Both the position numbers and the translations under genes were made by a program. The notes beneath the pieces are model-generated. The model was given only the letters and a program-made list of their open reading frames with translations, did no database searches and had not been told where the DNA came from. From a virus, in IMG/VR virus record IMGVR_UViG_3300045988_080644: a stretch of 64,000 nucleotides of DNA; one strand, written 5' to 3'. How positions within the stretch are numbered: position 1 is the stretch's first letter; each line of letters begins with the position of its first letter. Of this stretch, positions 2 to 59,975 are shown in pieces.

Positions 2-3000
2 AAGAATTTTAATTTAGATACTTGGAAGAATAACATGGTACTTGCTGCAAATAGGGCAGGTATTAGTGGATGGAATAATGGATATTTCAACATTGGTTCT
101 CAAAGTACTATACCTACAGATGATAAAAAGCCTGAGGCTTTTGATATAAATAATGATTAGGCAGTTATTGATAAATATAAATTAGCAGACTAGATTGCTG
201 CACATCCTGAGTAGAGAGAGCATCTTCTTGATTTAGCTAGAAGACAATATAATCAGGAATCTTAGAATATAACTGATGAGTACAATGCAGCTATTAAATA
301 GGAATAGGAAATTGCTAATAATAAGATATGGCAGTAGTATTTAGCTAATGAAGGTAAGGGTTATGCTAATGTAAGTAAAAGAAACTTTGGTACTGAAGTC
401 TTTGGTAATGGTTGGCAGAACGGAAATACTGATTTTGAGTATACTAGTGGAACTAGTCAAGAAGCAATGAGACGTTTATAGAATGCTTTTAAAACTGGAA
501 ATAGAAAAGGAGATTTTCTTAGAACAGCTATTAATATGACAGTTAATGGAGGTAAATAGAAGATTTCTAATCTAGGTGAAGCACTTGCTTATTACAAACC
601 ATTACTTGATAAAACACAAGGTGGTTGGGATTAGTTTGAAAAAGTATAGGATGCTGCAGGTAATGAGATATATAAATTAAAAGGTTCCGAAAATGCAAAG
701 GGGCAACCTCTTTATATATGGTTTAAAAACGGAAAAGCACATGCTTATAGAGACGATCCATATTCTGTAAGAAAAGCTTAGGTTATCTCAAGAGCTTAGT
801 TAGGTATGAAATTACAAACTAAAGCTGAAAAAGAGGCTGCAAAAGAAAAGGAAAATAAAAAGACTCTTAGTAATCCAAATACACCGGAAGATAAAAAGAG
901 ACAAATAGCAAGTTAGAGAAAACCTGGAGATACTGAATTTACTGCTACTGATATAGCTAGAATATCTGCAGCTGGAATGGATGTAGCTTCTGCTTTATCG
1001 GTGTTTATTCCAGTATATGGTACTGCTGCAAGCGCAGGCACAGGTTTAATTTCTTCTTTAACTAATTTTGGTGCAGATATGTTTGATAAGTCTGTATCAG
1101 CAGGAGATATGTGGAAAAATCTTGGGACTAATATTGCTATGGATGCCGTGGGATTGGTTCCAGGTTTTGGAACTGCTGGAAAAGCAGGTAAAATAACTAA
1201 AACTTTAATTAAATATGTACCTAAGATAGTAACTGCCCTATCTGCAGCTAATGCTTTATCTCCTGAATCTAGAGCATCTTGGGCTAAATTAGCTAGTAAT
1301 GAATCTCTTACAGTTAAAGATTGGCAAAATATTGCAGCAGGTTGTTCTGCTTTAGCAGGAGTTTCTAGAGGTGCAGTTGGACATTTTAATGCTCACACGA
1401 TGGCTAAGGGTACTAAAACTAAGGATTTTAATATAACTGCTTCTGATGGCAAATAGTATAAGGTAATTGCAGAGTAGTTAGAAACTTTAAAGAAACAAAA
1501 ATCATTAGAAGATATAAATAAAGAATTTAAGAAGTTGTATCCTGATGCTGAATTAAGTAGTTTCTTTAGAAATGGTAAATGGTAGTAGTTAAGACATTTA
1601 TACTTTAATAATCCACAAGTTAAATCAGTTTATGATTTTAGTCGATTAAATAATTAGGGAACATTTAGTAACTCTAATATATGGAAAATAGCTAGAGAAA
1701 ATAACTTACGTGGCATTAGTTTAGATGTAAAAAATCCGTATAAGAATTCCTTACTTAAGCAACCTACACCTAGTAAACCTTCTAAAAAGAAATATGAGAG
1801 ACCTAGAGCAACTGCAAAATCTAAATAGTAGGTAACTAATTCACCGCTAAATAATAGTCCTGAACGATATAATTATGTTCGTAGGAGTGTTCAATCTAAT
1901 ACTAGTGACGAAGTAAAAACATGGAGAGATATATTTACTAAGAATCATTTTTATTTTAAAGAGGGTGGTTCTGTTTAGAAATTAGCTAATGGTAATAGTA
2001 TAAATGGTAATCCTGCTAAATAGAATAGTGTAGGATATACTAATGATTATAATTGGAATACTGATGTGTTTTCTAAAAATTTAGACCATATACTTGGTAG
2101 TCTTAAATAGTATAAAGACGGTTATGCTAATTGGTTAAATACTATGTAGGACTTACACTATAACGATTATACTAATGCTTCTAAATAGGATTATTTAAAT
2201 ACTAATGCATATAATAATGCAACTGTTGGTTAGTATTAGGATAAGTATAAAGCTGGATATGAAGACGAATGGAACGTAAGTCCTGAAGGAAATGATCCTG
2301 ATGGTTTAGGATACAATACTCTTGGAATTAAGTCAGCTCAAGATTCTGGAAAATTCGGTATAGTGTCGGGAAATGCTAACTCAGGTGATTGGTTAGGTAA
2401 TGGTAATATGTATAAAACAGATAATTCATTTGGAGGAATTACCGATGCTAGAAGACTTTTAGGTCGTGAAGGTGATTTTAATGATGAATAGCTAAAACAA
2501 TACTAGCAAAAGTTCAAAGAATAGGGATATGATTTTTATCTAGACCCAAATACTAAATATTATAAATTAAAACCTTACACTGACCCTTCAAAGACAACTG
2601 TAGCAGACTAGGATAAACCTAAATAGCCTAATAACTTTAGTTTAAAAGATGCTATAAATAAGATGGATGTTACTGATAAATGGGGTATTCCTAGAGCTAT
2701 GTATGCTGACATAACTAATAGAAAGGTTACAGATATGTTAAAGAAGTAGCCTATATTATATGGTCCACAAGAAGACCATCGTTATGTTTAGTCTGATTTA
2801 GATGCAGAAATGAATGGTCAATAGGCTGCAGCTTAGTTAGCCAGAACAGCCAGTCATCCTATTACATCTGATGGAAATCTACAATCTATGCTTTAGTTAG
2901 AAGCAACTTCTAAAGGTAATGATGCTATTATTGCAGGACGTCAATAGAGTAATTAGAGATTAAGAGAAATGTAGGAATAGGCTTGGTAGCAAGAAGTAGC

Positions 3001-3691: not shown

Positions 3692-4938
3692 TGCCAGGCT
3701 AGCAAGATACAGTACATTCTTACAGACCTACTTTACCAATTACTTATTAGTATCATTTAAAACCTGGAGAATCTTTTTATAAAGATAGAAACGGAAAAGT
3801 TACTATTATCCGCTCTAGAAACGAACAAGTTAGCAAAGATACTAGAAATAATTGGCAAAAGAAATAGGACAGTAAGAATGCTCCAAATATGAGAAAATAG
3901 AAGTAGATGACCTAGGCAGAACACAAAACTGCTTAGGTTGCTTCTAATATTTTAGATAGAGTAAGACCTTCTAAATTGGTAACCGCAGTTGTTAGAGGTT
4001 AGAAACCTATGGACTATATAGATAATGGAAATAAGGGCACTGGTAATGAAGTTTTAAACACAGGGTTTGACATACTTAGTACTTTTGGAACAAATGCACT
4101 GTTTAATATGTCAAAGTTTCCAAAGTTAAATCAAATAAATTTGCTTACTAAGGCAACAGAAGATTCCTCTGATTTGGGATTATTTAACTAGGGAAGACTT
4201 GCCCTAATGCGTAGATATAGACAAAATCCTATTTGGGAAAATAATGCAAGAGCCGCAGGATTAACTGATTAGGAAATAGAAACTTTCAGGAACTATGCAA
4301 ATGGTCTATTATCTACTAAACAATCCTCTGAGCCAAGGGTGCCAAGTTTATAGGTTTTATAGGATACTAATTCATATAGTAGTTATAGTAATATTGCAAG
4401 AAATCCTGATGGCTCTATTAAAAGAGAACTTGTTTTAGGAACCGGTCCAAATTCTCCTAAATATACTGGAGTACATGAAGGTGGTCATATGAGTACCCTG
4501 AATTATAATCCTGAAAATGAGAGAGTTGCATTCAAGTAGTTAATGTCTAATAAAGAAGCTAAAACTGCAATAGATAAGTTAATGCAAAATGCAAATAATC
4601 TTGCCAATTAGTTAGAAATTGATCCTCAGAAAATAGTCAATGTAAGAAGGATATTAATAAAAAGAGGTATGACACCAGAACAAGCTGACTAGACTATACT
4701 AAAACAAATAAAATATTTGAAAGAGGGTTAGGAAACTAGGTCTAGAGGCTTGGCTGCTTAGGAGTGGATGTAGGATAATCATAGTGTAGAAGTTCCATAG
4801 ACTGTAGATAATGGCGTCAATTTTTTCACTGATAAATCTTTAAGAAACGTATGGAGAGGAATAGCATCAACAATTCCAATAACATAGGGTTATTCACAAA
4901 TGATGTAGAACAATACCTAGGAAAAGTAGACAAAATAA
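3691..4938 (+). CDS. Hypothetical virion-module protein (415 aa with TAG=Gln) carrying an HExxH motif (HEGGH)
   Basis: ATG 3691 overlaps the upstream stop (TAATG). Frame 1 is open to TAA 4936-4938 with many in-frame TAG. HEGGH is encoded at 4474-4488. Track ORF 4009..4191 is a fragment of it. Confidence 0.7.
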
Positions 4939-5138
4939 TTTTTACACAAGTAGATTGTTTATATGGTTTACTAGATTCTAATTTTAAAATGAAAACTCTA
5001 ACTGTAACCAAAAATATAGACAAAATCCTAGAACAATGTACTAATTTTCCAGGTTCTACTAATTATATAAACGCTGATTTATACAAAGATAATAGATTAA
5101 TAGGAAATATAATAATTGATAAATTACCAGAAATATGA
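4851..5138 (+). CDS. Hypothetical small protein (95 aa; alternative internal start ATG near 4987)
   Basis: Standard-code ORF with no TAG. Its TGA overlaps the next gene's ATG (ATGA at 5135-5138), suggesting coupling. Its 5' 88 nt overlap the previous gene, so the true start is uncertain. Confidence 0.3.
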   Translation: MERNSINNSNNIGLFTNDVEQYLGKVDKIIFTQVDCLYGLLDSNFKMKTLTVTKNIDKILEQCTNFPGSTNYINADLYKDNRLIGNIIIDKLPEI

Positions 5139-7006
5139 TATTTAAGTTTCAATAGGGGGGAACTACTCCTCCCTTTGTTGCTTATTAGCCAGTTATAGTG
5201 TCTGATAAGCGAACTTCAGCTATTCCAGAAGAAGCCGTAGCTGCTAAAGTAGCTAGTGATGCTGATAAGGGTAAATTAACTAGCAAAGATTTATATACTA
5301 TGCTTAAAGAAAAGCTTAAAGGTTTACCTAGTGACGTAGATGTAGCTATGTGGAAACTTCAATCTGTTGAAGAGTCCCTCAATTTAGATTTTTTTCATGA
5401 TTTTACATCTAATGTAGAAAATAGGTATTTAAATGCTTTACAAACTATGAATCAACTTTCATTTAGTAGAGAATAGTATGATAAGGCTTTAGATAATGTA
5501 AAATCTAATGGAGGACTTAATGAAGCGGCTATAGATTAGTATGGTCAAGTATATATGACTAACGGTAAAGACTATAAGTTAATGTCTCCTGAAAAAGCTA
5601 AATAGTCCGGATGGAAACAAATGACTAATTAGGATTTACTCTATTTAAGAGCTAATGACCCTAGTTTGTCGGGAAAAGATGAGATTTTAAACATAGTTAA
5701 TAATGGTATAGGAATAGATAAGGTAACAGAATATATTCAAAAATGTATTCAAGGATTAGGAGCTTCTAAATCTGAAGAAAATCTATATGCTAATGTTAAT
5801 GCAGGAACTATATTAAAGGGCTTAAATGATTTTAAATAGGCGGTAGCTTAGTCTGGAAATTATGATGCCACTGTTCAAGATCTATACAGTGGTAAATTAA
5901 TGACTAAAGATTCTGCAGAATAGGCTCAATAGGCATTAACTTACATATATAGAAGTTTGCCTAATAATATGAAATCCCTTTTAAAAACAAGAACAAAAGG
6001 GGGTACAGATGATGAAGCTTTAGTTATGATAGGACAATTAATCAGTTCTAAGACTTCTCCTGAAAAATCATTTGAACTTAAATTAGAAGATACTGCTTTA
6101 GACCATTAGGAAAAATCAGGTAAAGGAGATAAAGATCCTCATTCTATAGAGGGTTTATCTATGAGTCCAGTAGATATGTTACAAGCAGGTTATGGTTAGA
6201 AGAATGATTTTACTATTTAGACAGCTGCAGGTGCTTCTAATGGTATATAGATTCCTACAGTACAAATGCCTATAACTAAGAAGGGCGAGGGTATTGGCAT
6301 GGCATCATTAAGTGATGTAGCATCCAGCGATTATGCAGGTTATCTAGATTTTAGTAATGCTTTTATGGGGGATGTTTAGATACCACAAGCAGGAATGTAG
6401 AATATAGCTATAGATGGTACTGCTTTATATACAGCTTATTTACCTTTAGACATGTAGTATTTTAATGACACAGGTTAGAAAAGACCTGATATAGCTATGT
6501 TAGGTAGATATAAATAGGCACAGAATGAAATAAGACAATCAGGAACTAAAGATCCAAGATAGATTAATGCCATCTATAAAAATCATAATTTACCAGTAAT
6601 GTACAGTCCTAATGGAGATATTTTAACTAACTATATCAAGTTTGGTATAGTAAATGGAACCGCTTTAGATAATGCCTTTGGTGATGAAGCTAAAGTAGCT
6701 GATTATTTATCAGAAACTACTGATAAAAATACAATAGCTAATACTCTTAATATTTTAAATAAGGGTAGGGGTGAAAAAAATAAGGTAGAATATGATGAAA
6801 AAAGTTGGTGGGATTCTATATCTCCTGTATTTAACGATTATACTCATGTCTATAAAGGAACTATATTTATGCCTATTAATGATGATTACTTTACTTATTC
6901 GGCAGCAGCAGGTTCTAAACCAACAACAGCTTAGGCAGAAATGATTGAAGCTAGATAGTAGGCTGCTAATAAAACTCGTAATTATGTAAATCCAGGACAA
7001 CTTTAA
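5135..7006 (+). CDS. Hypothetical virion-module protein (623 aa with TAG=Gln)
   Basis: ATG 5135. Frame 2 is open to TAA 7004-7006 with no TAA/TGA and numerous in-frame TAG. Track ORFs 5198..5476 and 6599..6934 are fragments in the same frame. Confidence 0.75.
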
Positions 7007-42187: not shown

Positions 42188-42442
42188 TTAGTGAACCCAA
42201 TGGTCATTTATATCTATATCTGCTCCTAAAAATACATTAGGACAGAATGGTTTACCTCCGGCTATCATACAATCAATCAACACTTTACCCACTTGTTCTT
42301 TAATTGCTGCTGGACACTCCAAGTTGAATTCATCATGAGCTGGTACACACATCTTTACCTTATCTATTAGCTTATGATCCACAATCCAATTAAATAGTTT
42401 AATAGAAGATAGTTTAAAGCACATTGCTCCTCTATTTTGTAT
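42188..42442 (-). CDS. polA: Family A DNA polymerase, exon 2 (84 aa, carries motif C)
   Basis: IQNRGAMCFKLSSIKLF...CVPAHDEFNLE matches the PolA Q-G-x-A-A-D helix and the motif C HDE. It is in frame with exon 1 after removal of 42443-42647. The track ORF 42188..42514 over-extends it from a TTG. Confidence 0.75.
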   Translation of the reverse strand: MQNRGAMCFKLSSIKLFNWIVDHKLIDKVKMCVPAHDEFNLECPAAIKEQVGKVLIDCMIAGGKPFCPNVFLGADIDINDHWVH

Positions 42443-42647
42443 CAATGTTTGGACTATTTCATTATCCCATAGGGATATTGGGCGCTTATAGGATATTATT
42501 GCTTCAATACTCAATCCTTAGTCTCTGAACCTTCTTACTACTTTTACTTGATTCATAAGCTTGGCTGCAGATTATTCTAATATTAGACCTTCCTGCAATT
42601 CACCCAATTTACAGTAGATAATTACTTATCTACGCCGCATACATTTT
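42443..42647 (-). ncRNA. Putative ORF-less group I-like self-splicing intron in polA (~205 nt)
   Basis: The 5' exon ends in U (42648) and the intron ends in G (42443). Exon CCGU can pair with intron GCGG (42638-42635) across a 9-nt loop, a P1-like helix with a U-G wobble. There is a GUAA tetraloop hairpin (GATAA-GTAA-TTATC) and further stems (TGCAG/CTGCA, ATCCC/GGGAT). Confidence 0.6.
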
Positions 42648-44579
42648 ACGGTAATTAATAGATTGTTTCTCAGAAGCTGCTTTACGCTGCATATAGTGTC
42701 TTACTTCCTGTACAATTTCATCTTGTGGATTACGTTTTCTTACATTCTGATAATACTCCCAAAATCCAGGTTCCTGCATCTTATTATGAGTCTCTTTTAA
42801 CTCTTCAGCATCATAAATATGTGCCCTATGTCCAGTGAGAGGATTAAGTAATATATAACCATCTCTCATAACAGCTGCTCTACAATAATCTTGGTATCTT
42901 TTTATTCCTGGAAAACCCTCCATAAAATTATCATAAATTTCTTTTGCTTCTTCTACAGGAATACCATCATTCTTAGATATAGTATTATAGTCTCCTCCAT
43001 AATTAATAGCAAACTCGATGGATTTGGCTTTTTGTCTCCAATTATGATAGAGTTTCTTTATATCCTCAATCTTAGTGTCTCTTGGGATTATATTAGGATA
43101 ACTCATGTAAGCTACCAGAGAATGGACATCACCACAACCATGTTCAAATAGGTCTATCATCTTCTCATCTTTAGAAACAGATGCAATAATACGAGATTCC
43201 TGACTTTGATAATCAGCAGATAACCAAGCATTACCCTCTTCGGATGTAAAACATGCTCTAGTTTCTGGATCGTGAGGTAGATTTTGCATGTTCAGTTTCC
43301 AAACACCTCCGCCAGAACTAACTCTTGCAGTATCTGTACCTATAGAATGAAAATCTGCATGTATTCTACCTGTTTTAGGATTAATTGCATTTAACCAGTT
43401 TTGTCCATAAGTAGATACGACTTTAGCAGCTTCTTGATATTCCAAAAATATAGGAATAATTGGAAAATCATTCTTTTGAGGTTTTAAAACATTTGCTTCA
43501 ATAGACTTCTTTTTCTGTTTAGTCTTTTTATCAAATGTTTCTACATTAATTCCAAGTAACTCAAATAGAGGTATTACTTGTTTTTGACTACTCCAATTTA
43601 TTACACATTTAGGTTCAGTATCAAATCCTGTAAATAAGTCACCTTGAGTATCAATTCGTGTAAACTGATTCTTAATTACTTTCTTATAAGCATCAACCTT
43701 ACCATCAGGGGTTTGTAAGTCTTCCTGAGGGAACCTTTTATATCCATCTTTAATTAGTCTCTTTACCTCAGCAGGATAATCTGCAGAATACTTTGGATAT
43801 TTAAGTTCAGGATATTGAATATCATAGCCATTATGAGGATTTTCTTTATCCCAAGCTACTACCCAAGCATTTAATTCTGAAATAGCCTTATCAAGTTTAG
43901 CTTGATCTTTAGTCATTTTAGCTTTCCACTTCGTAATATCGAGATGAACTCCACAATATTTAAAGTAAGCAAGGGATTTAACAAATTCACATTCCAGCTC
44001 TACTGCGAGTTTCATGCCTTGTTTTTCTATTTCAATATCTTGTTTTTCTTTTATATCCTCTATATACGTAACATCTCCTGCAGCATAAATAACGACCTCA
44101 GTAGTTAAACCATCATTAACAATTTTACCTCGAACAGTTTTATCAATGTTAATATTTAAGTAATTCCATGCAGCTGCTTTCAAGCTCTTTTCACGCATTT
44201 GAGCTGGATACCCTAGATATAAGAGCTGTTCTACTATCATACCATCCCAAATATGCTTAGGATAGATACCCTGAACATATAAAAAGGTTAAATCAAACAT
44301 TAAATTCCATCCCAGAAACAATCTGTCTGATTCTAGGTAGTTTTTAACTATTTGCTTTTCTCTTGGAGTTAGAGTAGTCCAATCAATAACTACTTGATTA
44401 TCTTTATTACCTAACTGTATAGTCAATAAAGCTTTGGTATGACAGTCGAGACCCTTAGTTTCTGAATCTAACTGACATAGTTTGAGCGGCAACAGAACAG
44501 ACATTGCCTGCTCCATTGTCGCTTCTATATATTTATCCGTTTGAAATAAACTTTTATTATGACTAACTAAATAAATCAT
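42648..44579 (-). CDS. polA: Family A DNA polymerase with 3'-5' exonuclease domain, exon 1 (644 codons)
   Basis: Exo motifs LDSETKGLD, NLMFDLTFL and YAAGDV. Pol motif A SADYQSQESRI and motif B RQKAKSIEFAINYGG. The track ORF runs on to a TAG at 42630 inside the intron. Confidence 0.9.
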
Positions 44580-44839: not shown

Positions 44840-45159
44840 GCTAAATAGTCATTTAACCACTCTATTCCATATTCATCTATTACCTTTTCATCTATCTTTA
44901 TAGCTTCAAGTTCTATATCCTCAAGCTGCTGTTCATACCAATCTTCAAATTGATCCTCATCATCCTCGTCTATATCTGGACTATCTAAATAGCTAAATGA
45001 GTTAACACACTCATCTCTTAATTCATTTGCATAACTCAGTTCTAATGTAGGATCTTCTTCACTTTCAATTACTTCATTTATTGAAGCATCACAAGCAACT
45101 GGATACTTAGCAATAACTAGCCACCAATTCCCATTAAGAAATTCTTCCTTAGATATCAT
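44836..45159 (-). CDS. Hypothetical highly acidic protein (107 aa)
   Basis: Intact ORF with an Asp/Glu-rich run (DIDEDDEDQFEDWYEQQLEDIELE). Confidence 0.55.
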   Translation of the reverse strand: MISKEEFLNGNWWLVIAKYPVACDASINEVIESEEDPTLELSYANELRDECVNSFSYLDSPDIDEDDEDQFEDWYEQQLEDIELEAIKIDEKVIDEYGIEWLNDYLA

Positions 45160-46004
45160 TATATTAATTTAAATAACTGTAAATTGCATCTTTTTCTTAT
45201 TTTATCTAAAGCTTTTTCTTTTATTTGTCTAACTCTTTCAACACCAATGCCAAACATATCTCCTACTTCTTGCTTGGACATAGGATTCATTCCTATGCCA
45301 AATAACATAATAATAATATCATGTTCTCTGACAGGAAGTATATCTAGACATTTGCATAGTTCCTTATTAATAAAGCTTTTATTAACTTGTTCGTCAAGAG
45401 AAGGCTCTCCGTCCGGTATCACATCACATACTTGACTATTTTCCTCATCCCCACCAATAAAGTCATCGACACTAACTAATCTGTTAGAAAATTGTGCCAA
45501 ATAGTCTATTTGCTTTTCAGGGATATTAGTTAAAGTATGTAATTCATTTGTAGTTGGATTTCTACCATTCTTTTTAATAAACTCATTAGTAGCTCTTAAT
45601 ATTTGAATTACTTTTAAGTGTTGAGTTACTGGCAATCTAATCTCACGACCATACCAATATATAGTAGTATAAATACATTGTTTTATCCACCAAGCAGAAT
45701 AATTAAGAAATTTAACACCCCTAGTTGGATCAAATTTATTTACAGATTTACATAAACCTTCCAATCCTGAGGATATTAAATCCATAAGGGGAATACCTCT
45801 ATTTTGAAACTGCTTAGCTATAGTTACTACAAATCTTAAATTAGAAGTAATTACTTTTTCTCTAGCCTTTTCATCTCCATTTTGAGCTTCAACAATTAGC
45901 TTGTTTATTTCTTCATTATCTAATATTTTATATTTAGATATATCTCGAAAATAACTCTGAAGTAGAGAGTCAGACTTGTCAGAAAAAATAATTCTTTTAT
46001 TCAT
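45159..46004 (-). CDS. Sigma-70 family RNA polymerase sigma factor
   Basis: Region 2-like RFVVTIAKQFQNRGIPLMDLISSGLEGLCKSVNKFDPTRGVKFLNYSAWWIKQ. Region 4 HTH MSKQEVGDMFGIGVERVRQIKEKALDKIRK. Confidence 0.8.
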   Translation of the reverse strand: MNKRIIFSDKSDSLLQSYFRDISKYKILDNEEINKLIVEAQNGDEKAREKVITSNLRFVVTIAKQFQNRGIPLMDLISSGLEGLCKSVNKFDPTRGVKFLNYSAWWIKQCIYTTIYWYGREIRLPVTQHLKVIQILRATNEFIKKNGRNPTTNELHTLTNIPEKQIDYLAQFSNRLVSVDDFIGGDEENSQVCDVIPDGEPSLDEQVNKSFINKELCKCLDILPVREHDIIIMLFGIGMNPMSKQEVGDMFGIGVERVRQIKEKALDKIRKRCNLQLFKLI

Positions 46005-50676: not shown

Positions 50677-51900
50677 TTACTCCAAATCGAAGCGGAAGAT
50701 TCTCAATTTTGGCTGCGTCGGGATATTATCATCTGAATAGTTAAAGAAAGTACATTCAGCTTTATGCCCTTTGTACTTAGTTTCAAAGTTCTCAACATAT
50801 TCAGCCTTAATTTCCCTATTACCTACTGGCATAGCTTCAAAAGTACGTCCATCTTCTAATTCGCAAGTAAATGTCATATCTTCAGAACCTCTAAGTCCCA
50901 ATTTATATCCAATTACTTTAAAATCCTCAGACTTATATTGTTTAATCTTTATAAGATTATTACAACGAGAACCTACTTTATAAGGCTTGGAAGGGTCTGT
51001 AATTACAGCCCCTTCAAATCCTGCAGAAACCCATTCATCGTGAAGTTTCTTCATATTATCCCAACCAGATACATATTCATGTCCCAAGAGTCTGATTGGT
51101 GCTTCTGATTCATCCTCACTACTTCTATAAATAGGGAAATTATGAGCCTCTGCAAATTTATCTTCTAAGAACTTATAACGTTCTGAAGCTATCATGTCAA
51201 TATCTGCAGAGTTATAACAATCATATACCCAATACTGCAACCAATCACAATCATAAGCATTCTTCTCCATTCTAGCAGCTCCTGAAAGTTGCTGAAGAGT
51301 CTTACCTCTTACGAACAACTCACCATCAAGAATAACAGTAGGATTTTCTTTGAAGAAAGCGAGCAAAGAAGGGTTAGTACGCAAGTGAACTGTACTATAG
51401 TCGTAATGTTCACCACCACGGCTAGCTGTATGAATTTCTTTACCATCCCAGTAGAATAATGCCTTTACACCATCGAGTTTTCTACTAATTAGCCATTCTT
51501 TATTAAATATCTTAGGATTTGTAACCTTATCAGCTTGTTTAGCTAATTGAGGTTTAATTACACCATACTGATTGGTTTTAACATCCCCAAATATACTAAG
51601 GAGTTCATCATCAGTATATTCATTAGGATGTTTATCAATTTCTTTATAGCCCTTATCTAAATATTTCTTAACTTCAGAGTTGAATTGTAAAGTATATTGT
51701 TCTTGCCAATTTCTCTTCTGTTTAGTTCTATCTACAATAATTTGAGGTGAGAGGGTTGTTTTTCCCCTCACCTGACCATAACTACGTTGAATTATATAAC
51801 CAGCTCGTCCATCGCCAATTGAATGCCATTCTTCATCACATTCTACAACTGCAAAACGAAACTTACCAGTACTAGCGCGTCCTAAAAGATATTTAATCAT
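50677..51900 (-). CDS. ATP-dependent DNA ligase
   Basis: Motif I SRKLDGVKA, motif III ILDGELF, motif IV FEGAVITDP and motif V NLIKIKQYK. Confidence 0.85.
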   Translation of the reverse strand: MIKYLLGRASTGKFRFAVVECDEEWHSIGDGRAGYIIQRSYGQVRGKTTLSPQIIVDRTKQKRNWQEQYTLQFNSEVKKYLDKGYKEIDKHPNEYTDDELLSIFGDVKTNQYGVIKPQLAKQADKVTNPKIFNKEWLISRKLDGVKALFYWDGKEIHTASRGGEHYDYSTVHLRTNPSLLAFFKENPTVILDGELFVRGKTLQQLSGAARMEKNAYDCDWLQYWVYDCYNSADIDMIASERYKFLEDKFAEAHNFPIYRSSEDESEAPIRLLGHEYVSGWDNMKKLHDEWVSAGFEGAVITDPSKPYKVGSRCNNLIKIKQYKSEDFKVIGYKLGLRGSEDMTFTCELEDGRTFEAMPVGNREIKAEYVENFETKYKGHKAECTFFNYSDDNIPTQPKLRIFRFDLE

Positions 51901-52769: not shown

Positions 52770-53037
52770 TACAATAACGATTTAAAATTTCAGAAATATT
52801 ATCTAAAGTGCATTCATTTGATTCACTATAAAAAGGAATCTCATGATTATTATCTTTAAATAAAGCAAATGGAGTTAATCTAGCACTATAACCACCTTTT
52901 AATCGGTATGCTTTCTTTTTCTCTAGATAATGAGACTCATTATAAGTTTTTATAGTGACACTATAAATAGTAGCCAAGTCCTCCAATTGTTTTTTAAAAT
53001 CTAAAATATCATTATTATAAGCTAATTCTAAAGTCAT
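52747..53037 (-). CDS. Hypothetical protein (96 aa)
   Basis: Intact ORF between dut and nrdG. Confidence 0.5.
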   Translation of the reverse strand: MTLELAYNNDILDFKKQLEDLATIYSVTIKTYNESHYLEKKKAYRLKGGYSARLTPFALFKDNNHEIPFYSESNECTLDNISEILNRYCNVESTCN

Positions 53038-53513
53038 TAATTACTTTTATGCCAAAAATAACTAGTTATATCTTTAGTTATTGATCTTCCACAAGTATTA
53101 TCAATTTCCAACATTACTTGATTTGTATTAGGATTATCTAATCCTCCTCTTTCTTCTACATAAGGACCTAATTTCACATAATCAAAATACTGTAAATCAA
53201 TTTCTGGAGCTAAATGATTTCTACCACTATACCAACCAACTTTTAAGTTATACTCTGTTTTAATATATTGTGCAAGAGCATTAACACTTTTTGGCTCTAT
53301 GTCTCCACCCATAAACCCTACACAAGTAATACCTTTATTTTCTGTAATTAACTTATGTAAAGTTAATTCTCCTAAAGGTTCTCCTATGTCCTCAGCAAGA
53401 TAAGATGAATGGCAACCAGGACAATGGCAAGGACATTGACTAATATTGATACACAAACTAATTTCGTTAGGAAACTCTGAGAAAGTAACCATCGAATTGA
53501 CATATTTAATCAT
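53037..53513 (-). CDS. nrdG: Anaerobic ribonucleoside-triphosphate reductase activating protein (radical SAM)
   Basis: CxxxCxxC cluster within CPCHCPGCHS. It has the small size (158 aa) typical of NrdG, and nrdD is nearby. Confidence 0.8.
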   Translation of the reverse strand: MIKYVNSMVTFSEFPNEISLCINISQCPCHCPGCHSSYLAEDIGEPLGELTLHKLITENKGITCVGFMGGDIEPKSVNALAQYIKTEYNLKVGWYSGRNHLAPEIDLQYFDYVKLGPYVEERGGLDNPNTNQVMLEIDNTCGRSITKDITSYFWHKSN

Positions 53514-55984: not shown

Positions 55985-56215
55985 TTATAAATTGTTTTCT
56001 AAATAATCTAAAATATTTTGATGGGTAGAATCATCTATTTGCATACCAACCTCACCTACCAAATTACATACACAAGATTCTAGATATTCAAGTCCTTTGT
56101 CGGTTTCTAAATAGTCTAAAATCTCATCTATGTTTTTAGTGTAAAATTCTTGATGGATAAAGTCTCTTAGAGCTTCTTCATCAAGTGTTTCTTCTTTAAC
56201 TAATGTTATTTCCAT
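55985..56215 (-). CDS. Hypothetical acidic protein (76 aa)
   Basis: Intact ORF. Confidence 0.5.
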   Translation of the reverse strand: MEITLVKEETLDEEALRDFIHQEFYTKNIDEILDYLETDKGLEYLESCVCNLVGEVGMQIDDSTHQNILDYLENNL

Positions 56216-56469
56216 TATTTACTAAGTAATTCCTTTATCTTACTAGCTGGAACTGCTCCGGACAATCTGCCTACTTCCATTCCATCTACTAAATAGATAA
56301 GAGTAGGCATATTTCTAATCTGATACTTTAGTGTTTTCTGTTCTTCAATTTCACAATCTACTATTGTTAACTTAACATCAGGAAAGTCTTTAAGTACATT
56401 ATCCAATGTAGGTTTAAGAGCTTTACACTGACCACACCACTCTGCTTCAAACTTTAATAACTCTTTCAT
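56215..56469 (-). CDS. Thioredoxin
   Basis: Active-site WCGQCK, an 84-aa thioredoxin-fold size and the cis-Pro region NMPTLIY. Confidence 0.8.
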   Translation of the reverse strand: MKELLKFEAEWCGQCKALKPTLDNVLKDFPDVKLTIVDCEIEEQKTLKYQIRNMPTLIYLVDGMEVGRLSGAVPASKIKELLSK

Positions 56470-56698: not shown

Positions 56699-56802
56699 TT
56701 AAAGATTTGGTTTATATGTAAAGCTTCTATCTCCACTCTTATACTTACGTATTGCAAATTCTAGCTGTCTAGGATTACTCCAATTGTCTACACACACTAA
56801 AT
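56699..56802 (-). CDS. nrdD: Anaerobic ribonucleotide reductase NrdD, exon 2 (completes the Tyr codon, then 33 aa)
   Basis: Joined to exon 1 it reads RIIG-YLVCVDNWSNPRQLEFAIRKY..., matching the NrdD C-terminal pattern GY...W-x6-E-x3-R. It ends at TAA 56699-56701. Confidence 0.75.
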
Positions 56803-57865
56803 CCTTTATACCCTCTCTTTCGAGATATTTAGTTTATTAATAACATAATCTTTTATTTCAGCTTTTCGTTCATCTGAAATTTTATCAATATAAGATTTAT
56901 ATACTGAATCATTAGCTTCATTTCTATACGATTTTAACATATATATTTCACAAAGATACCTTTGATATACTGCTTCTTCTTTTAATGTATATTCTTTCAT
57001 ATAATATCTTTGTTTCATATAAGTAAAATCAGTCTTCCATTTGTTACTTTTTTTACAAAAGGAAACCCCTCGTATTCCGGAAGTATTAGTAGATTTCTTT
57101 TGCAGATTTAACATATTTTCTTGTACAGTTACTTCTCTAAGATTAGATTTCCTATTGTCACGAGTGTCACCACTTATATGATCCACTTGTTTATCAGTAG
57201 GCAATACCAGTCTATGAAAGTATATACGCTCTTTTTTCTGATTTCCTGTAAATAAATATGGTTTATCATTTTTATAAACAGTTCTCCATTTATGACCCTT
57301 TAATTTCGAAATGTCATTTACATCTAGAATAAATGTTTCCATAACATTTCCATAAGAATCATAAGTATCTATTTCTGCAAAATTATCTTTTAATCTAATT
57401 TCATTATCATCAAATACACCTCTTGGATTAGAGTCTTTAAATTCTCCATAATTTTTAAACTGCCTTGCATGTTTAAGACAGAGTGTTTTTCCAGCTAAGT
57501 TATTAAAACTTACTTGTTTAAATTTTGATGATACACCACATACTTCACAAAAGCGTTCTTCAGTTATTTTTCTCATATTGTCAAAATTGTGTTAATAATA
57601 AGGGAGTGGACTATACCATCAACCGATTAGGTTGCGCATTGGTAGTCTCTGAGACCCATAAATTTTTATCTATGTCAAGTATATACACGACTTGTATATA
57701 CCACAATAGTATTAACATAAATTAACAATTTATATGTCTGCTGATTGCCCAATCCTAAGACTTGTTCATTTTTGAATTAAATTCAAATATACTTAGGCTC
57801 TAAGGGGTTTCCAGCATATTCTGCGTTTTCATCATAACATTACTGTTATAAGGGGCGTTTATTTC
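56803..57865 (-). mobile_element. Group I-like intron (~1063 nt) carrying an HNH-AP2 homing endonuclease, inserted at the nrdD glycyl-radical site
   Basis: The 5' exon ends in U (57866) and the intron ends in G (56803). Exon GGGU can pair with intron GCCC (57856-57853) across a 9-nt loop. A 289-nt non-coding, stem-rich segment (57577-57865) precedes the endonuclease ORF. Confidence 0.65.
56806..57576 (-). CDS. HNH-family homing endonuclease with AP2 DNA-binding domain
   Basis: HNH motif HRLVLPTDKQVDHISGDTRDNRKSNLREVTVQENMLN. AP2-like SGIRGVSFCKKSNKWKTDFTYMKQRYYMKEY. It lies wholly inside the nrdD intervening sequence. Confidence 0.85.
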   Translation of the reverse strand: MRKITEERFCEVCGVSSKFKQVSFNNLAGKTLCLKHARQFKNYGEFKDSNPRGVFDDNEIRLKDNFAEIDTYDSYGNVMETFILDVNDISKLKGHKWRTVYKNDKPYLFTGNQKKERIYFHRLVLPTDKQVDHISGDTRDNRKSNLREVTVQENMLNLQKKSTNTSGIRGVSFCKKSNKWKTDFTYMKQRYYMKEYTLKEEAVYQRYLCEIYMLKSYRNEANDSVYKSYIDKISDERKAEIKDYVINKLNISKERV

Positions 57866-59975
57866 ACCCAATAATTCTAGTATAATATTTGATGTGTCTA
57901 CAATGACAAATAGGACACTCATCAATAGGGGCATTTACTACATGTCCGCATTCTCTACATTGAGACATTGGGATATTAAATGTGAAATAACTAGTACCCT
58001 CATCCTTAGCTACATCTAACAGATGTAAATACTGTTGTTTACTTAAATGAGCATCAAGATTTGCATGAAGTGCCTGACCTCCATCACAATACTGAGCTAC
58101 TCCTCTACCATGAAGCTTAAATTTATCAAGAATAGAGGTCTCATCCCATGGATTATAGAAATAACAATTATACAGATTCTGATTTTCAGGTACTGCATAA
58201 CCATCCTTCTTATCCCAATTATAGAGTTTTACACCTAATCCTTCCCCAGGAATAGCTTCACTATTAAACAAGAATGGTCTTTTACTATCGTGGATAGAGT
58301 TTTTCTTATTTTCTTCTTTAACAGTACCAAATACTAATTTAAGAAAATCTTTATATTCCTTATTATTAGATACCGATAGTCCCAAGAATTGTGCAGCTTC
58401 ACAATAACCTATCAATCCAATGGTAGAATACAATTTACGCATATAAATATATCCTGCATTACAATCAGAAAACATTTTAGCGTCTTCCATTTCATAAAGC
58501 ATTGTCTTATATGCAATATGATACTTATATACTCTTTCAAGAATATTAATAAGATAATTTTTTAAGTCTGAAAAACTCTCAGAAAACCACTCAAAAGGAA
58601 AGGCACACTTACCATCAACAATATGATCCTCCCAATTTTTCCATGTATGTATATAATCCTGAACAATTCTATTAATATTAAGAGTAATTACATTACAAGA
58701 ACCAGTCATAACTCCAGTCATACCTGTAGTAGAACTAAAGGTATTATCAGACATTTTATTTAGGACTCTACAACATGATGCCAAAGATGTAGGATTATCA
58801 CTAGTATAGCAGAAGAAACTTCCACCTTTAGCCCACTCTTCGGCACATAACTCTTTGTATTCATGATCAAGATACTCTTTACCATTATGTACAAGAGCCA
58901 TAGTAGTTACTGGAAATGTGAGAGGTTTAATTAATCTGATTTCTCTTAAAAGTTGCATAAAGATTCTCTGCAACTTATCTATAGCATTCCATTCAGGTTG
59001 TGTTCCATCAGGATAATAAAATTCTCCAAAGAGTGATTTAAAATATACTTTATCATAAAAAGATACATTAGAGAAAGGTGAATTGTAGCTTCTATTGCCT
59101 GCAGGTTGATTAACTCCATAAATAAACTGCTTCATACCCTTTCGGATATAATGTCCAACAGTATACTGATGCAGAAAGTGGGAATTAGTTACAACTTCAT
59201 CCACCTTATCATACCATACAGGTCCAAACTCTTGAATTACATAATAATTAAGAGCTATAAAATAATCTCCAAGAGCAACCGCTCCCTTACACTGAGAACT
59301 AAACAAAAACACAGCATTAGTTACCTGACCACTAAAAGACTGAATATCATTTGGAGCACTAGGAGTAACTCCATCAATATTACCTACACCCTTAAGCATT
59401 AATGGGTACAATGTAACTGCTTTACAATAAGGTTTAAGTACCGGAGTACTTGCCTCATCATGAGTATAAATAATATGATTTTCCAAATCCTTAATATACT
59501 GTCTTCCAAGTTCTTGACCTGGATACAATTTATTAAGTTTATCTTTCATTCGTTGTCTTTGGATAATTCTATTAGTTACTTTATATACTTCACCCTCAAG
59601 ATTAGCTACATTCTTAGAAGCAACATTAGCATTAGCATCTGTTTCTGAAGAAGTAGATGCATTTACACCAGAATCTTTATAAGTGTCCATGTAATTAAGT
59701 CTACTTCTAATAAATCTAGCTTTCTTGTGTTCTTCTCTATAAATGGAATAAGCTCTGGCTACATCAAAATATTCGTAATTATATAAAGTCTCTTCTACTT
59801 CATCTTGAATTTCTTCTACAGTAATATTATCCCAGAATCTCATTTCTGAAACCATATCCCGAATAACATTTTCAACAGAAGTATAACCACAAGCTTTAAA
59901 TGCCTTAGTTAAAGCATTAAATATTTTATCTGCATTAAACTCTTCCTTTGTTCCGTCTCTTTTTATAATGACCAT
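57866..59975 (-). CDS. nrdD: Anaerobic ribonucleoside-triphosphate reductase NrdD, exon 1 (703 codons plus 1 nt)
   Basis: N-terminal ATP-cone (VIIKRDGTKEEFNADKI), C-terminal Zn ribbon CRECG...CPICHC and glycyl-radical motif TRIIG. The ORF stops directly after the radical Gly, where about 25-30 more residues are expected. Confidence 0.9.

Follow-up and report, generated by a model that had tools for sequence, protein, structure and literature searches.

Group I introns with homing endonucleases in phage genes for ribonucleotide reductase are textbook cases. Among these genes, nrdD is the one most often split in phages (PMC3653736), and the T4 elements have been reviewed (PMC2988022). The group I introns of the Bacillus phages SPO1 and SP82, with I-HmuI and I-HmuII, and those of nrdE in the Staphylococcus phage Twort reside in DNA-metabolism genes at conserved functional codons and encode HNH proteins (PMC3653736). 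In the gut jumbo 'Jug' phages, which are predicted to infect Bacteroides/Phocaeicola, small group I introns and endonuclease genes break up nrdD, and metatranscriptome reads confirm some of the splicing (PMC12880540, Sci Adv 2026). Here we describe nrdD in a 64,000-nucleotide stretch of viral DNA, IMG/VR record IMGVR_UViG_3300045988_080644, the whole of which is called the window below. The gene is very probably interrupted by a mobile group I intron located at the boundary between the radical glycine and the tyrosine that follows it.

This description is based on the anatomy of the locus, the conserved structure of the insert, its junctions, a presence/absence polymorphism and an intron identity that is well above the identity of the host genes. 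The searchable literature yielded no description of an intron at the radical glycine of nrdD, which is not proof of novelty.

The interrupted nrdD gene

The genes of the window around nrdD are all on the minus strand. The gene itself is that of the catalytic subunit of anaerobic class III ribonucleotide reductase. It appears in the list of open reading frames (ORFs) as a 703-amino-acid (aa) frame at 57864..59975, minus strand, which terminates with ...CRECGHVVNAPIDECPICHCRHIKYYTRIIG-TGA (YYTRIIG-TGA), right after the radical glycine, as a first-pass annotation of the window had pointed out. Its unspliced product scores 225 bits against Pfam NRDD over profile positions 11-541 of 562, contains an ATP-cone (80 bits) and is 60-62% identical to the uninterrupted NrdD of the crAss-like cr85_1, IAS virus and cr111_1. 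The locus consists of the following parts.

57866..59975, minus strand: nrdD exon 1, with the ATP-cone, the NrdD barrel, the Cys4 zinc motif CRECG...CPICHC and the RIIG radical-glycine motif, and then T, the first base of the Tyr codon
56803..57865, minus strand: predicted group I intron, 1063 nucleotides (nt), first base G57865, terminal G56803; delimited by frame restoration, the same boundaries in 12 other lineages and covariation
56806..57576, minus strand: putative HNH(-AP2) homing endonuclease gene, 256 aa, in the P9 loop; assigned by HNH_3, PHROG 99 and same-site homologs
56699..56802, minus strand: nrdD exon 2, 104 nt, consisting of AT, which finishes the Tyr codon, LVCVDNWSNPRQLEFAIRKYKSGDRSFTYKPNL and TAA

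The interruption lies between bases 1 and 2 of the Tyr codon, with T57866 being the last nucleotide of exon 1 and G56803 the last nucleotide of the intron. Joining T57866 to A56802 creates a 737-aa NrdD that reads RIIG-Y-LVCVDNWSNPRQLEFAIRKY... or, with the exon 2 residues listed above, RIIG-Y-LVCVDNWSNPRQLEFAIRKYKSGDRSFTYKPNL, and that ends with ...RIIGYLVCVDNWSNPRQLEFAIRKYKSGDRSFTYKPNL and a stop. Exon 2 begins after AGG as AT TTA GTG TGT GTA GAC AAT TGG ... and ends with TAA at 56699. The predicted mRNA junction is ...AGAATTATTGGGT/ATTTAGTGTGTG..., also written AGAATTATTGGGT/ATTTAGTGTGTGTAGAC, where the slash marks the splice site here and below. The boundaries, the 1063-nt insert and the 104-nt exon of the first-pass annotation all agree with the coordinates found here. 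The spliced protein contains CRECG..CPICHC..RIIGY followed by the W-x6-E-x3-R tail that had been proposed, and R, G, E and R are invariant in a C-terminal alignment with the uninterrupted NrdD of cr85_1, IAS virus, Lak-A1 and T4. Splicing increases the Pfam NRDD score by 21 bits to 245.8 and extends the match to profile positions 11-560 of 562, with the ATP-cone present.

The stop codon of the exon 1 frame, TGA, spans the splice site (T/GA). If this codon were recoded and read through, or if it were a sequencing error, the gene would continue in frame and there would be no interruption at all. Recoding of stop codons is reported for some gut phages (bioRxiv 10.1101/2021.08.26.457843). Read-through of this TGA, however, gives NKRPL and then TAA, which is nothing NrdD-like. 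The true C terminus is found 1063 nt downstream in another frame, and the same arrangement recurs in independent assemblies. This explanation has practically no chance of being correct; it is already refuted by the sequence itself.

Group I features of the insert

The 5' part of the insert, comprising 289 nt (57865..57577), has no long ORF, in agreement with its earlier description as a non-coding leader. When a 316-nt stretch (57570..57885) was scanned with the Rfam group I model RF00028, a full-length match (model positions 1-253) was found at 57590..57875 with a score of 29.4 bits and E=7.2e-6. The alignment to the model places the internal guide, P3-P8 and the hallmark P7 strands UCAGAGACUA...AUAGUC. 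This result was suggestive, but not sufficient on its own, and relatives of the insert were therefore sought. The predicted elements of the core are listed below; those of the 5' part were mapped from alignment columns.

57595..57869, minus strand: ribozyme 5' part, located by column-to-window mapping, pair counts, the RF00028 alignment, the fold and an nhmmer profile
57869-57865/57857-57853, minus strand: P1, with U57866·G57856 at the 5' splice site
57849-57844/57839-57834, minus strand: P2
57825-57822/57638-57635, minus strand: P3
57816-57811/57744-57739, minus strand: P4
57806-57804/57750-57748, minus strand: P5
57796-57791/57760-57755, minus strand: P5a
57738-57736/57655-57653, minus strand: P6, with a long P6a extension
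57647-57644/57612-57609, minus strand: P7
57634-57630/57624-57620, minus strand: P8
57604-57602, minus strand: P9 5' strand (CCC)
56803..56832, minus strand: ribozyme 3' part, containing P9a, the P9 3' strand, the linker and the terminal G56803
56825-56814, minus strand: P9a hairpin UCUC-GAAA-GAGA, with a GAAA tetraloop
56813-56811, minus strand: P9 3' strand GGG
56810-56803, minus strand: linker UAUAAAG and terminal G, together UAUAAAGG

In the predicted P1, the exon GGGU pairs with the intron GCCC across GAAAUAAAC, and the first G of the intron also pairs with the C preceding GCCC. The first-pass annotation had given this helix a 9-nt loop. The pairing is indeed possible, but comparison with the relatives gives the window a P1 of 5 base pairs (bp), GGGUG/CGCCC, closed by a 7-nt loop. 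A possible P10 is formed by bases 2-5 of exon 2 (UUUA) and the UAAA just upstream of the internal guide. The minimum free energy (MFE) fold of the single sequence 57577..57873 recovers P1, P2, P4-P6, P7 and P8 (z=-2.6). P3, P7, P8, P9 and P9a are intact in the window, and P5a has one mismatch. P6a has two mismatches in the comparative alignment described below, although on direct reading P6/P6a is continuous except for one mismatch. The P7 sequence and the phage context, which are the only basis for it, provide a lead for an IA-like subgroup assignment.

Introns at the same site in other lineages

When the last 108 aa of the spliced protein were used as a tblastn query, the matches in Lak-B megaphages ended exactly at the glycine and those in Lak-A and Lak-C ran past it. 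In Lak-B1 the end of exon 1, ATAATCGGGT, is followed by a 245-nt insert without an ORF and then by ATTTAACTAAAATTTCGAATTGG (exon 2 side ATTTAACT). The intronless Lak-A1 gene reads ATCATTGGAT/ATTTAACT... (RIIGYLTKISNW), that is GGAT/ATTTAACT, across the predicted junction of Lak-B1. Alternative 3' splice sites of Lak-B1 that would give G-L-Y or a terminal U were rejected, as the Lak-A1 allele puts the site after ...UAUAUUGUG. Among GenBank phages, megablast and blastn searches with the region and the intron core found no close copy other than MT835492.1 (L005), which carries a 92%-identical core at the same place and from which the endonuclease ORF is deleted save for its last 25 codons.

IMG/VR and GTDB genomes were then scanned for the P7-P3'-P8-P7' pattern GACTACCAA-N15-35-GGTATAGTC and searched by tblastn with the spliced NrdD. 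At many loci the NrdD match ends exactly at residue 703 and the P7-P8 pattern lies about 200 nt downstream. The two junctions were readable in 13 non-redundant lineages: the window and 12 others, which are Lak-B megaphages, contigs from phages and metagenomes, and contigs that had been binned with Firmicutes. Their introns measure 227-1088 nt and take three forms.

With the ORF: window/L081 1063 nt, L032 1064 nt, L106 943 nt, L079 937 nt, L103 947 nt, L022 895 nt, L158 1033 nt, L164 1088 nt
ORF deleted: L116/L119/L005 308 nt
Without an ORF: Lak-B 245 nt, L056 227 nt, L054 244 nt, L187 244 nt

In all 13 lineages exon 1 ends with GG(G/A)T, the intron starts with AA or GA, so that the exon 1 frame stops at T/AA or T/GA across the splice site, and a guide (GCCC, GTCC or GCTC) is found within 10-25 nt of the intron start. 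The U·G pair at the 5' splice site and the terminal G of the intron are likewise present in 13 out of 13. Exon 2 starts with ATTT(A/G), giving Gly-Tyr-Leu, or with TTTAY, giving Gly-Phe-Tyr. The spacing of eight between the glycine and the following aromatic residue is retained throughout; the residue is mostly Trp, but Phe in L079 and Tyr in L158. A hand count showed that a P10 of 3-6 bp is possible in 11 of 11 lineages. The recurrence of the junction in 12 other lineages places that of the window far beyond chance.

Several of these loci have peculiarities of their own. In L056, L054, L022 and L164, whose exon 2 starts with TTTAY and which represent one NrdD lineage, splicing would give Gly-Phe-Tyr-Thr-Pro-Ile, so that Phe would follow the radical glycine, with the Gly-to-Trp spacing being kept. 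L046 (IMGVR_UViG_3300028797_000807, near oriented position 5976) was rejected as a same-site case, the partner of its guide GUCC being the exon sequence AGGAU, eight bases upstream. What it carries resembles a related intron that entered about 8 nt upstream, within the Ile codon directly following the Arg codon (...CAA AGG AT/T...), which would make it a neighboring but different insertion point in the same motif. In Lak-B1 (L001, 850-3220) nrdD has additional breaks upstream of the intron at the glycine site; in one of these gaps an HNH-like ORF (2559..2846, ...CSNCHRKIHAG...) is situated between NrdD fragments that end at 2134 and start at about 2944. The nrdD of L005 (3730-6915 of MT835492.1, minus strand) forms an ORF of 1062 aa, within which about 350 aa are inserted in frame at the conserved Cys-Cys (window residue ~402). 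This insert scores 30.5 bits for Intein_splicing, below the cut-off of 35.8, and 25.1 bits for LAGLIDADG_3, above the cut-off of 22.5. In this gene an apparent intein at the catalytic cysteine thus accompanies the group I intron at the radical glycine. Breaks at residue 402 also occur in several other NrdD matches from phages.

Covariation

An alignment of ten same-site introns (A1) was analyzed with RNAalifold, which returned P1, P2, P4, P5, P5a, P6, P6a, P7, P8, P9 and the terminal hairpin, with compensatory changes in 36 of the 54 pairs. In the structure that includes a manually added P3 pseudoknot, standard pairs make up 96.8% of 532 cells, and both sides change in 40 of 54 pairs. Not one of 500 shuffles reached any of five measures, and sliding the pairing partners by 1-3 columns lowered the pairing to 38-46%. 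All four pairs of P3 covary and are 100% paired, and P4, P5, P6 and P8 contain compensatory changes. The U·G pair of P1 is present in all ten members. The exon and the guide covary, being GGAU/GUCC in L164 and L075, outside this alignment, and GGGU/GCUC in L187, compared to GGGU/GCCC in the window. In every lineage, P9a and the P9 3' strand (helices 11 and 12) are conserved and show compensatory changes.

An nhmmer profile built from eight other lineages, with the window and its close relatives excluded, matches the window in three collinear pieces: 57871-57733 (E=6e-18), 57657-57592 (E=1e-10) and 56832-56798 (E=0.041). The last of these, the third best match in the whole 64 kb, is located exactly at the predicted 3' end. 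Weak matches were also obtained near 63.0-63.6 kb, where a check with Rfam shows no intron. The same-site covariation supports the identification of the insert as a group I intron with a complete core, including the P3/P7 pseudoknot. The first-pass annotation had likewise read the insert as a group I intron.

The endonuclease ORF

The predicted 256-aa product matches Pfam HNH_3 with 37.5 bits (cut-off 24.8), has the motif DHISGDTRDNRKSNLREVTVQEN and finds the HNH endonucleases of PHROG 99 as its best match (E=3e-26). Homologous ORFs of 203-277 aa are present in seven other same-site introns; HNH_3 is recognized in all eight members of this family and an AP2-like domain in five of them at E<=0.01, the best having E=9.3e-7. 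A phmmer search of the Protein Data Bank (PDB) with the single HNH protein gave no match, and the profile of the family alone reaches entry 1U3E, deposited as 'HNH homing endonuclease' (E=0.005). We take 1U3E to be I-HmuI.

The ORF ends with TAA, followed by three nucleotides (AGG) and exon 2. In the members without an ORF, the 3' region consists of P7', CCC(C), a short loop, an NNNN-GAAA-NNNN hairpin, GGG and UAUAAAAG up to the splice site. The window has the same CCC (57604-57602), then the ORF, and the P9a hairpin, GGG and UAUAAAGG at the very end. The ORF is thus predicted to be inserted inside the P9 loop, and its last eight or so codons (NISKERV and stop) double as P9a and the P9 3' strand, which is why it ends three nucleotides before the splice site. 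The overlap likewise accounts for the 25 final codons that L116 and L005, the ORF-deleted relatives (308 nt), have kept, since this tail holds P9a and P9. The first-pass description of a complete HNH-AP2 ORF lying 3 nt from the splice site therefore stands as to the HNH domain and the distance; the AP2 match of the window copy is below the cut-off, and the ORF does not simply end there but is embedded in P9. The ORF is 84% identical at the DNA level to that of L032, and synonymous changes account for 48 of the 92 codons that differ, in keeping with purifying selection.

Points against the intron and the remaining alternatives

Several observations weigh against a group I intron that is functional in the window. 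The RF00028 score is lower than the curated gathering score of 50 bits. A scan of the whole window at this threshold gave no RF00028 match to the nrdD insert, and a scan of 1301 nt around the insert at E<=10 gave no group I match; an SmY match of 27.5 bits in the latter scan is regarded as chance noise. The Rfam check proposed in the first-pass annotation thus fails at the curated threshold and succeeds only on the short stretch. RF00028 covers the group I subgroups unevenly; it gives 81 bits to the other intron of the window and 105 bits to that of T4 nrdD. The ORF-containing members of A1 were trimmed by hand to remove the ORF. P7 and four of the five P1 pairs are invariant in A1 and, since they never vary, carry no covariation support. 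The P10 of the window is only 4 bp long. The AP2 match of the window ORF (18.5 bits, E=0.0026) is below the cut-off of 33.3.

The low Rfam score, the mismatch in P5a and those in P6a (two in A1, one on direct reading) might mean that the insert is a decayed descendant of a group I intron that no longer splices, with nrdD being dead or truncated. We regard this as improbable. Every helix, including P3, P7, P8, P9 and P9a, is intact in the window's own sequence and the MFE fold recovers most of them. Exon 2 retains the conserved W, E and R, the HNH ORF is of full length, and its codon differences from L032 are enriched for synonymous ones. The same core is also retained in L081, which is a near-identical copy on an independent metagenome contig. 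Furthermore, a putative gene for the activating enzyme is retained.

53037..53513, minus strand: nrdG-like activating enzyme, the putative installer of the glycyl radical; tblastn identity of 54% to a candidate NrdG ORF that adjoins nrdD in MT835492.1

The assignment of the candidate in MT835492.1 is based on a CxxxC-type radical-SAM-like motif, on where the ORF lies and on its resemblance to an annotated 4Fe-4S protein that adjoins nrdD in IAS virus. The ORF of the window scores 20.7 bits for Fer4_12, under the 22-bit cut-off. The presence of an nrdG-like gene suggests that an intact NrdD is needed.

Alternatively, a free-standing HNH gene could have split nrdD without any splicing, as mobE did in nrdA of Aeromonas phage Aeh1 (PMC3653736), and the 703-aa fragment would then assemble with a C-terminal peptide translated from GTG 56797 to give an active enzyme. 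A 32-aa ORF with this start does exist (56699..56797), and the unmet Rfam threshold would fit as well. The two residues after the glycine, Tyr and Leu, would however be absent from this peptide. A protein-only layout also leaves unexplained the helix-by-helix covariation in the 289-nt leader and the last 30 nt, the relatives that have the ribozyme alone at the same position, and the U·G and terminal-G rules, which are obeyed in 13 of 13 lineages. The split-gene explanation is very unlikely, less likely still than decay. Overall, it is the covariation and the ORF-less relatives that make the alternatives to a group I intron unlikely.

Spread of the intron

The NrdD proteins of the window and L032 are 38.8% identical in amino acid sequence, whereas the intron cores are 89% and the ORFs 84% identical in nucleotide sequence. 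An intron that is 84-89% identical in genes whose products are 39% identical argues for recent horizontal spread. The closest uninterrupted NrdD proteins, those of the crAss-like phages, have no intron, whereas L158, at 69% identity, has it; similarly, the intron is present in Lak-B and absent from Lak-A. This distribution is the presence/absence pattern of a homing intron, for which cleavage and homing would be the presumed cause.

We incline to the view that these introns constitute an uncatalogued group I family that specifically targets the radical-glycine boundary of nrdD and has recently spread among very different phage groups, namely relatives of crAss-like phages, the Lak megaphages, and phage-like contigs that binning had grouped with Lachnospiraceae and Erysipelotrichaceae. 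The site would be a second, independent intron hot spot of nrdD beside that of T4, next to the intein hot spot at the catalytic cysteine. Since the family would escape standard Rfam annotation, many phage nrdD genes in the databases would have been mis-called as truncated at the catalytic glycine. This is possibly the first description of a widespread family within a well-known kind of element.

Unless the intron is recognized, the nrdD of the window and at least a dozen other public phage and metagenome nrdD genes are called as stopping at the catalytic glycine, the orphan second exon of 30-40 aa stays unannotated and the curated Rfam threshold misses the intron. The locus is a clean case of a homing element on the most constrained codon of its host gene, in which ribozyme-only, ORF-deleted and ORF-containing forms coexist, and it provides clear evidence of transfer between phages with NrdD proteins only 39% identical. 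The known workings of group I introns and homing endonucleases are unchanged by it. Its value is for annotation, for the striking target site and for horizontal spread.

Proposed mechanism of splicing and homing

Catalysis, splicing in vivo and the activity and target of the endonuclease are inferred from sequence. The pre-mRNA would fold as a ribozyme with P1-P8 and the 5' strand of P9 in its first ~265 nt, and P9a, the P9 3' strand and the terminal G in its last ~30 nt. An external guanosine would attack after U57866, which the internal guide GCCC would hold in the U·G wobble. Next, the released end of exon 1 would attack after G56803, with the short P10 aligning exon 2, and the spliced mRNA would encode the full 737-aa NrdD with its RIIGY...W...E...R C terminus. 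Before splicing, the TGA across T/GA would halt translation of exon 1, and because it straddles the splice site, ribosomes would be kept out of the core. The 256-aa HNH(-AP2) protein of the P9 loop would be the homing endonuclease. During co-infection it most likely cleaves intronless nrdD alleles close to the strongly conserved GGN-TAY-YTN, whereupon repair would copy the intron in. The intronless nrdD of cr85_1 is a candidate cleavage target, around ACAAGGGTTATAGGGTATCTGAGACCC.

Other features of the phage

A second, small group I intron without an ORF is found at 42432-42658, minus strand, where it splits a family A DNA polymerase gene. Its flanking ORFs are 42630..44579 and 42188..42514; the Pfam DNA_pol_A match of exon 1 ends at profile position 288, and that of the downstream ORF spans 298 to 379 of 381. 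This intron, which is unrelated to the nrdD intron, is the sole group I match of the window at the curated Rfam threshold. The window also contains a sigma-70-type factor with regions 2, 3 and 4 (45159-46004), an ATP-dependent DNA ligase (50677-51900) and a thioredoxin (56215-56469), all on the minus strand. The crAss-like phages use their own RNA polymerase, and a sigma-70 gene is unexpected for them, yet the NrdD of the window is closest to theirs. A near-identical contig, IMGVR_UViG_3300045988_056527, is 120.7 kb long.

Comparison with known systems

The nrdD (sunY) intron of T4 with I-TevII belongs to the same kind of element and resides in the same host gene. Its layout is also that of the window, with the core in the 5' part, the endonuclease ORF downstream and a remote 3' splice site; in the T4 locus (L126) the core is at 5653-5884, the ORF at 4837-5613 and exon 2 starts at about 4810. 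The T4 intron was nevertheless rejected as the same element because it is inserted after about codon 180. Unlike the window, T4 has an uninterrupted Gly580 within exon 2 (...RRTCGYLG...). The endonuclease is of the GIY-YIG type in T4 and of the HNH type in the window, and the RF00028 scores are 105 and 29 bits, respectively; the two introns are set apart by these properties rather than by direct comparison of their sequences.

The introns of SPO1, SP82 and Twort resemble that of the window in their HNH endonucleases and conserved-codon sites, but differ in host gene and site. The likeness to 1U3E is confined to the HNH core of about 50 residues, whereas the family of the window features a Cys-rich region at the N terminus as well as an AP2-like module. 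For the Jug phages, the available part of the text gives no intron positions and does not mention the glycine site (PMC12880540). The nrdA gene of Aeh1 is, like nrdD of the window, a reductase gene broken by an HNH endonuclease gene, mobE. However, in Aeh1 there is no intron and two polypeptides are made, whereas in the window a conserved ribozyme flanks the ORF and the predicted junction restores a single frame.

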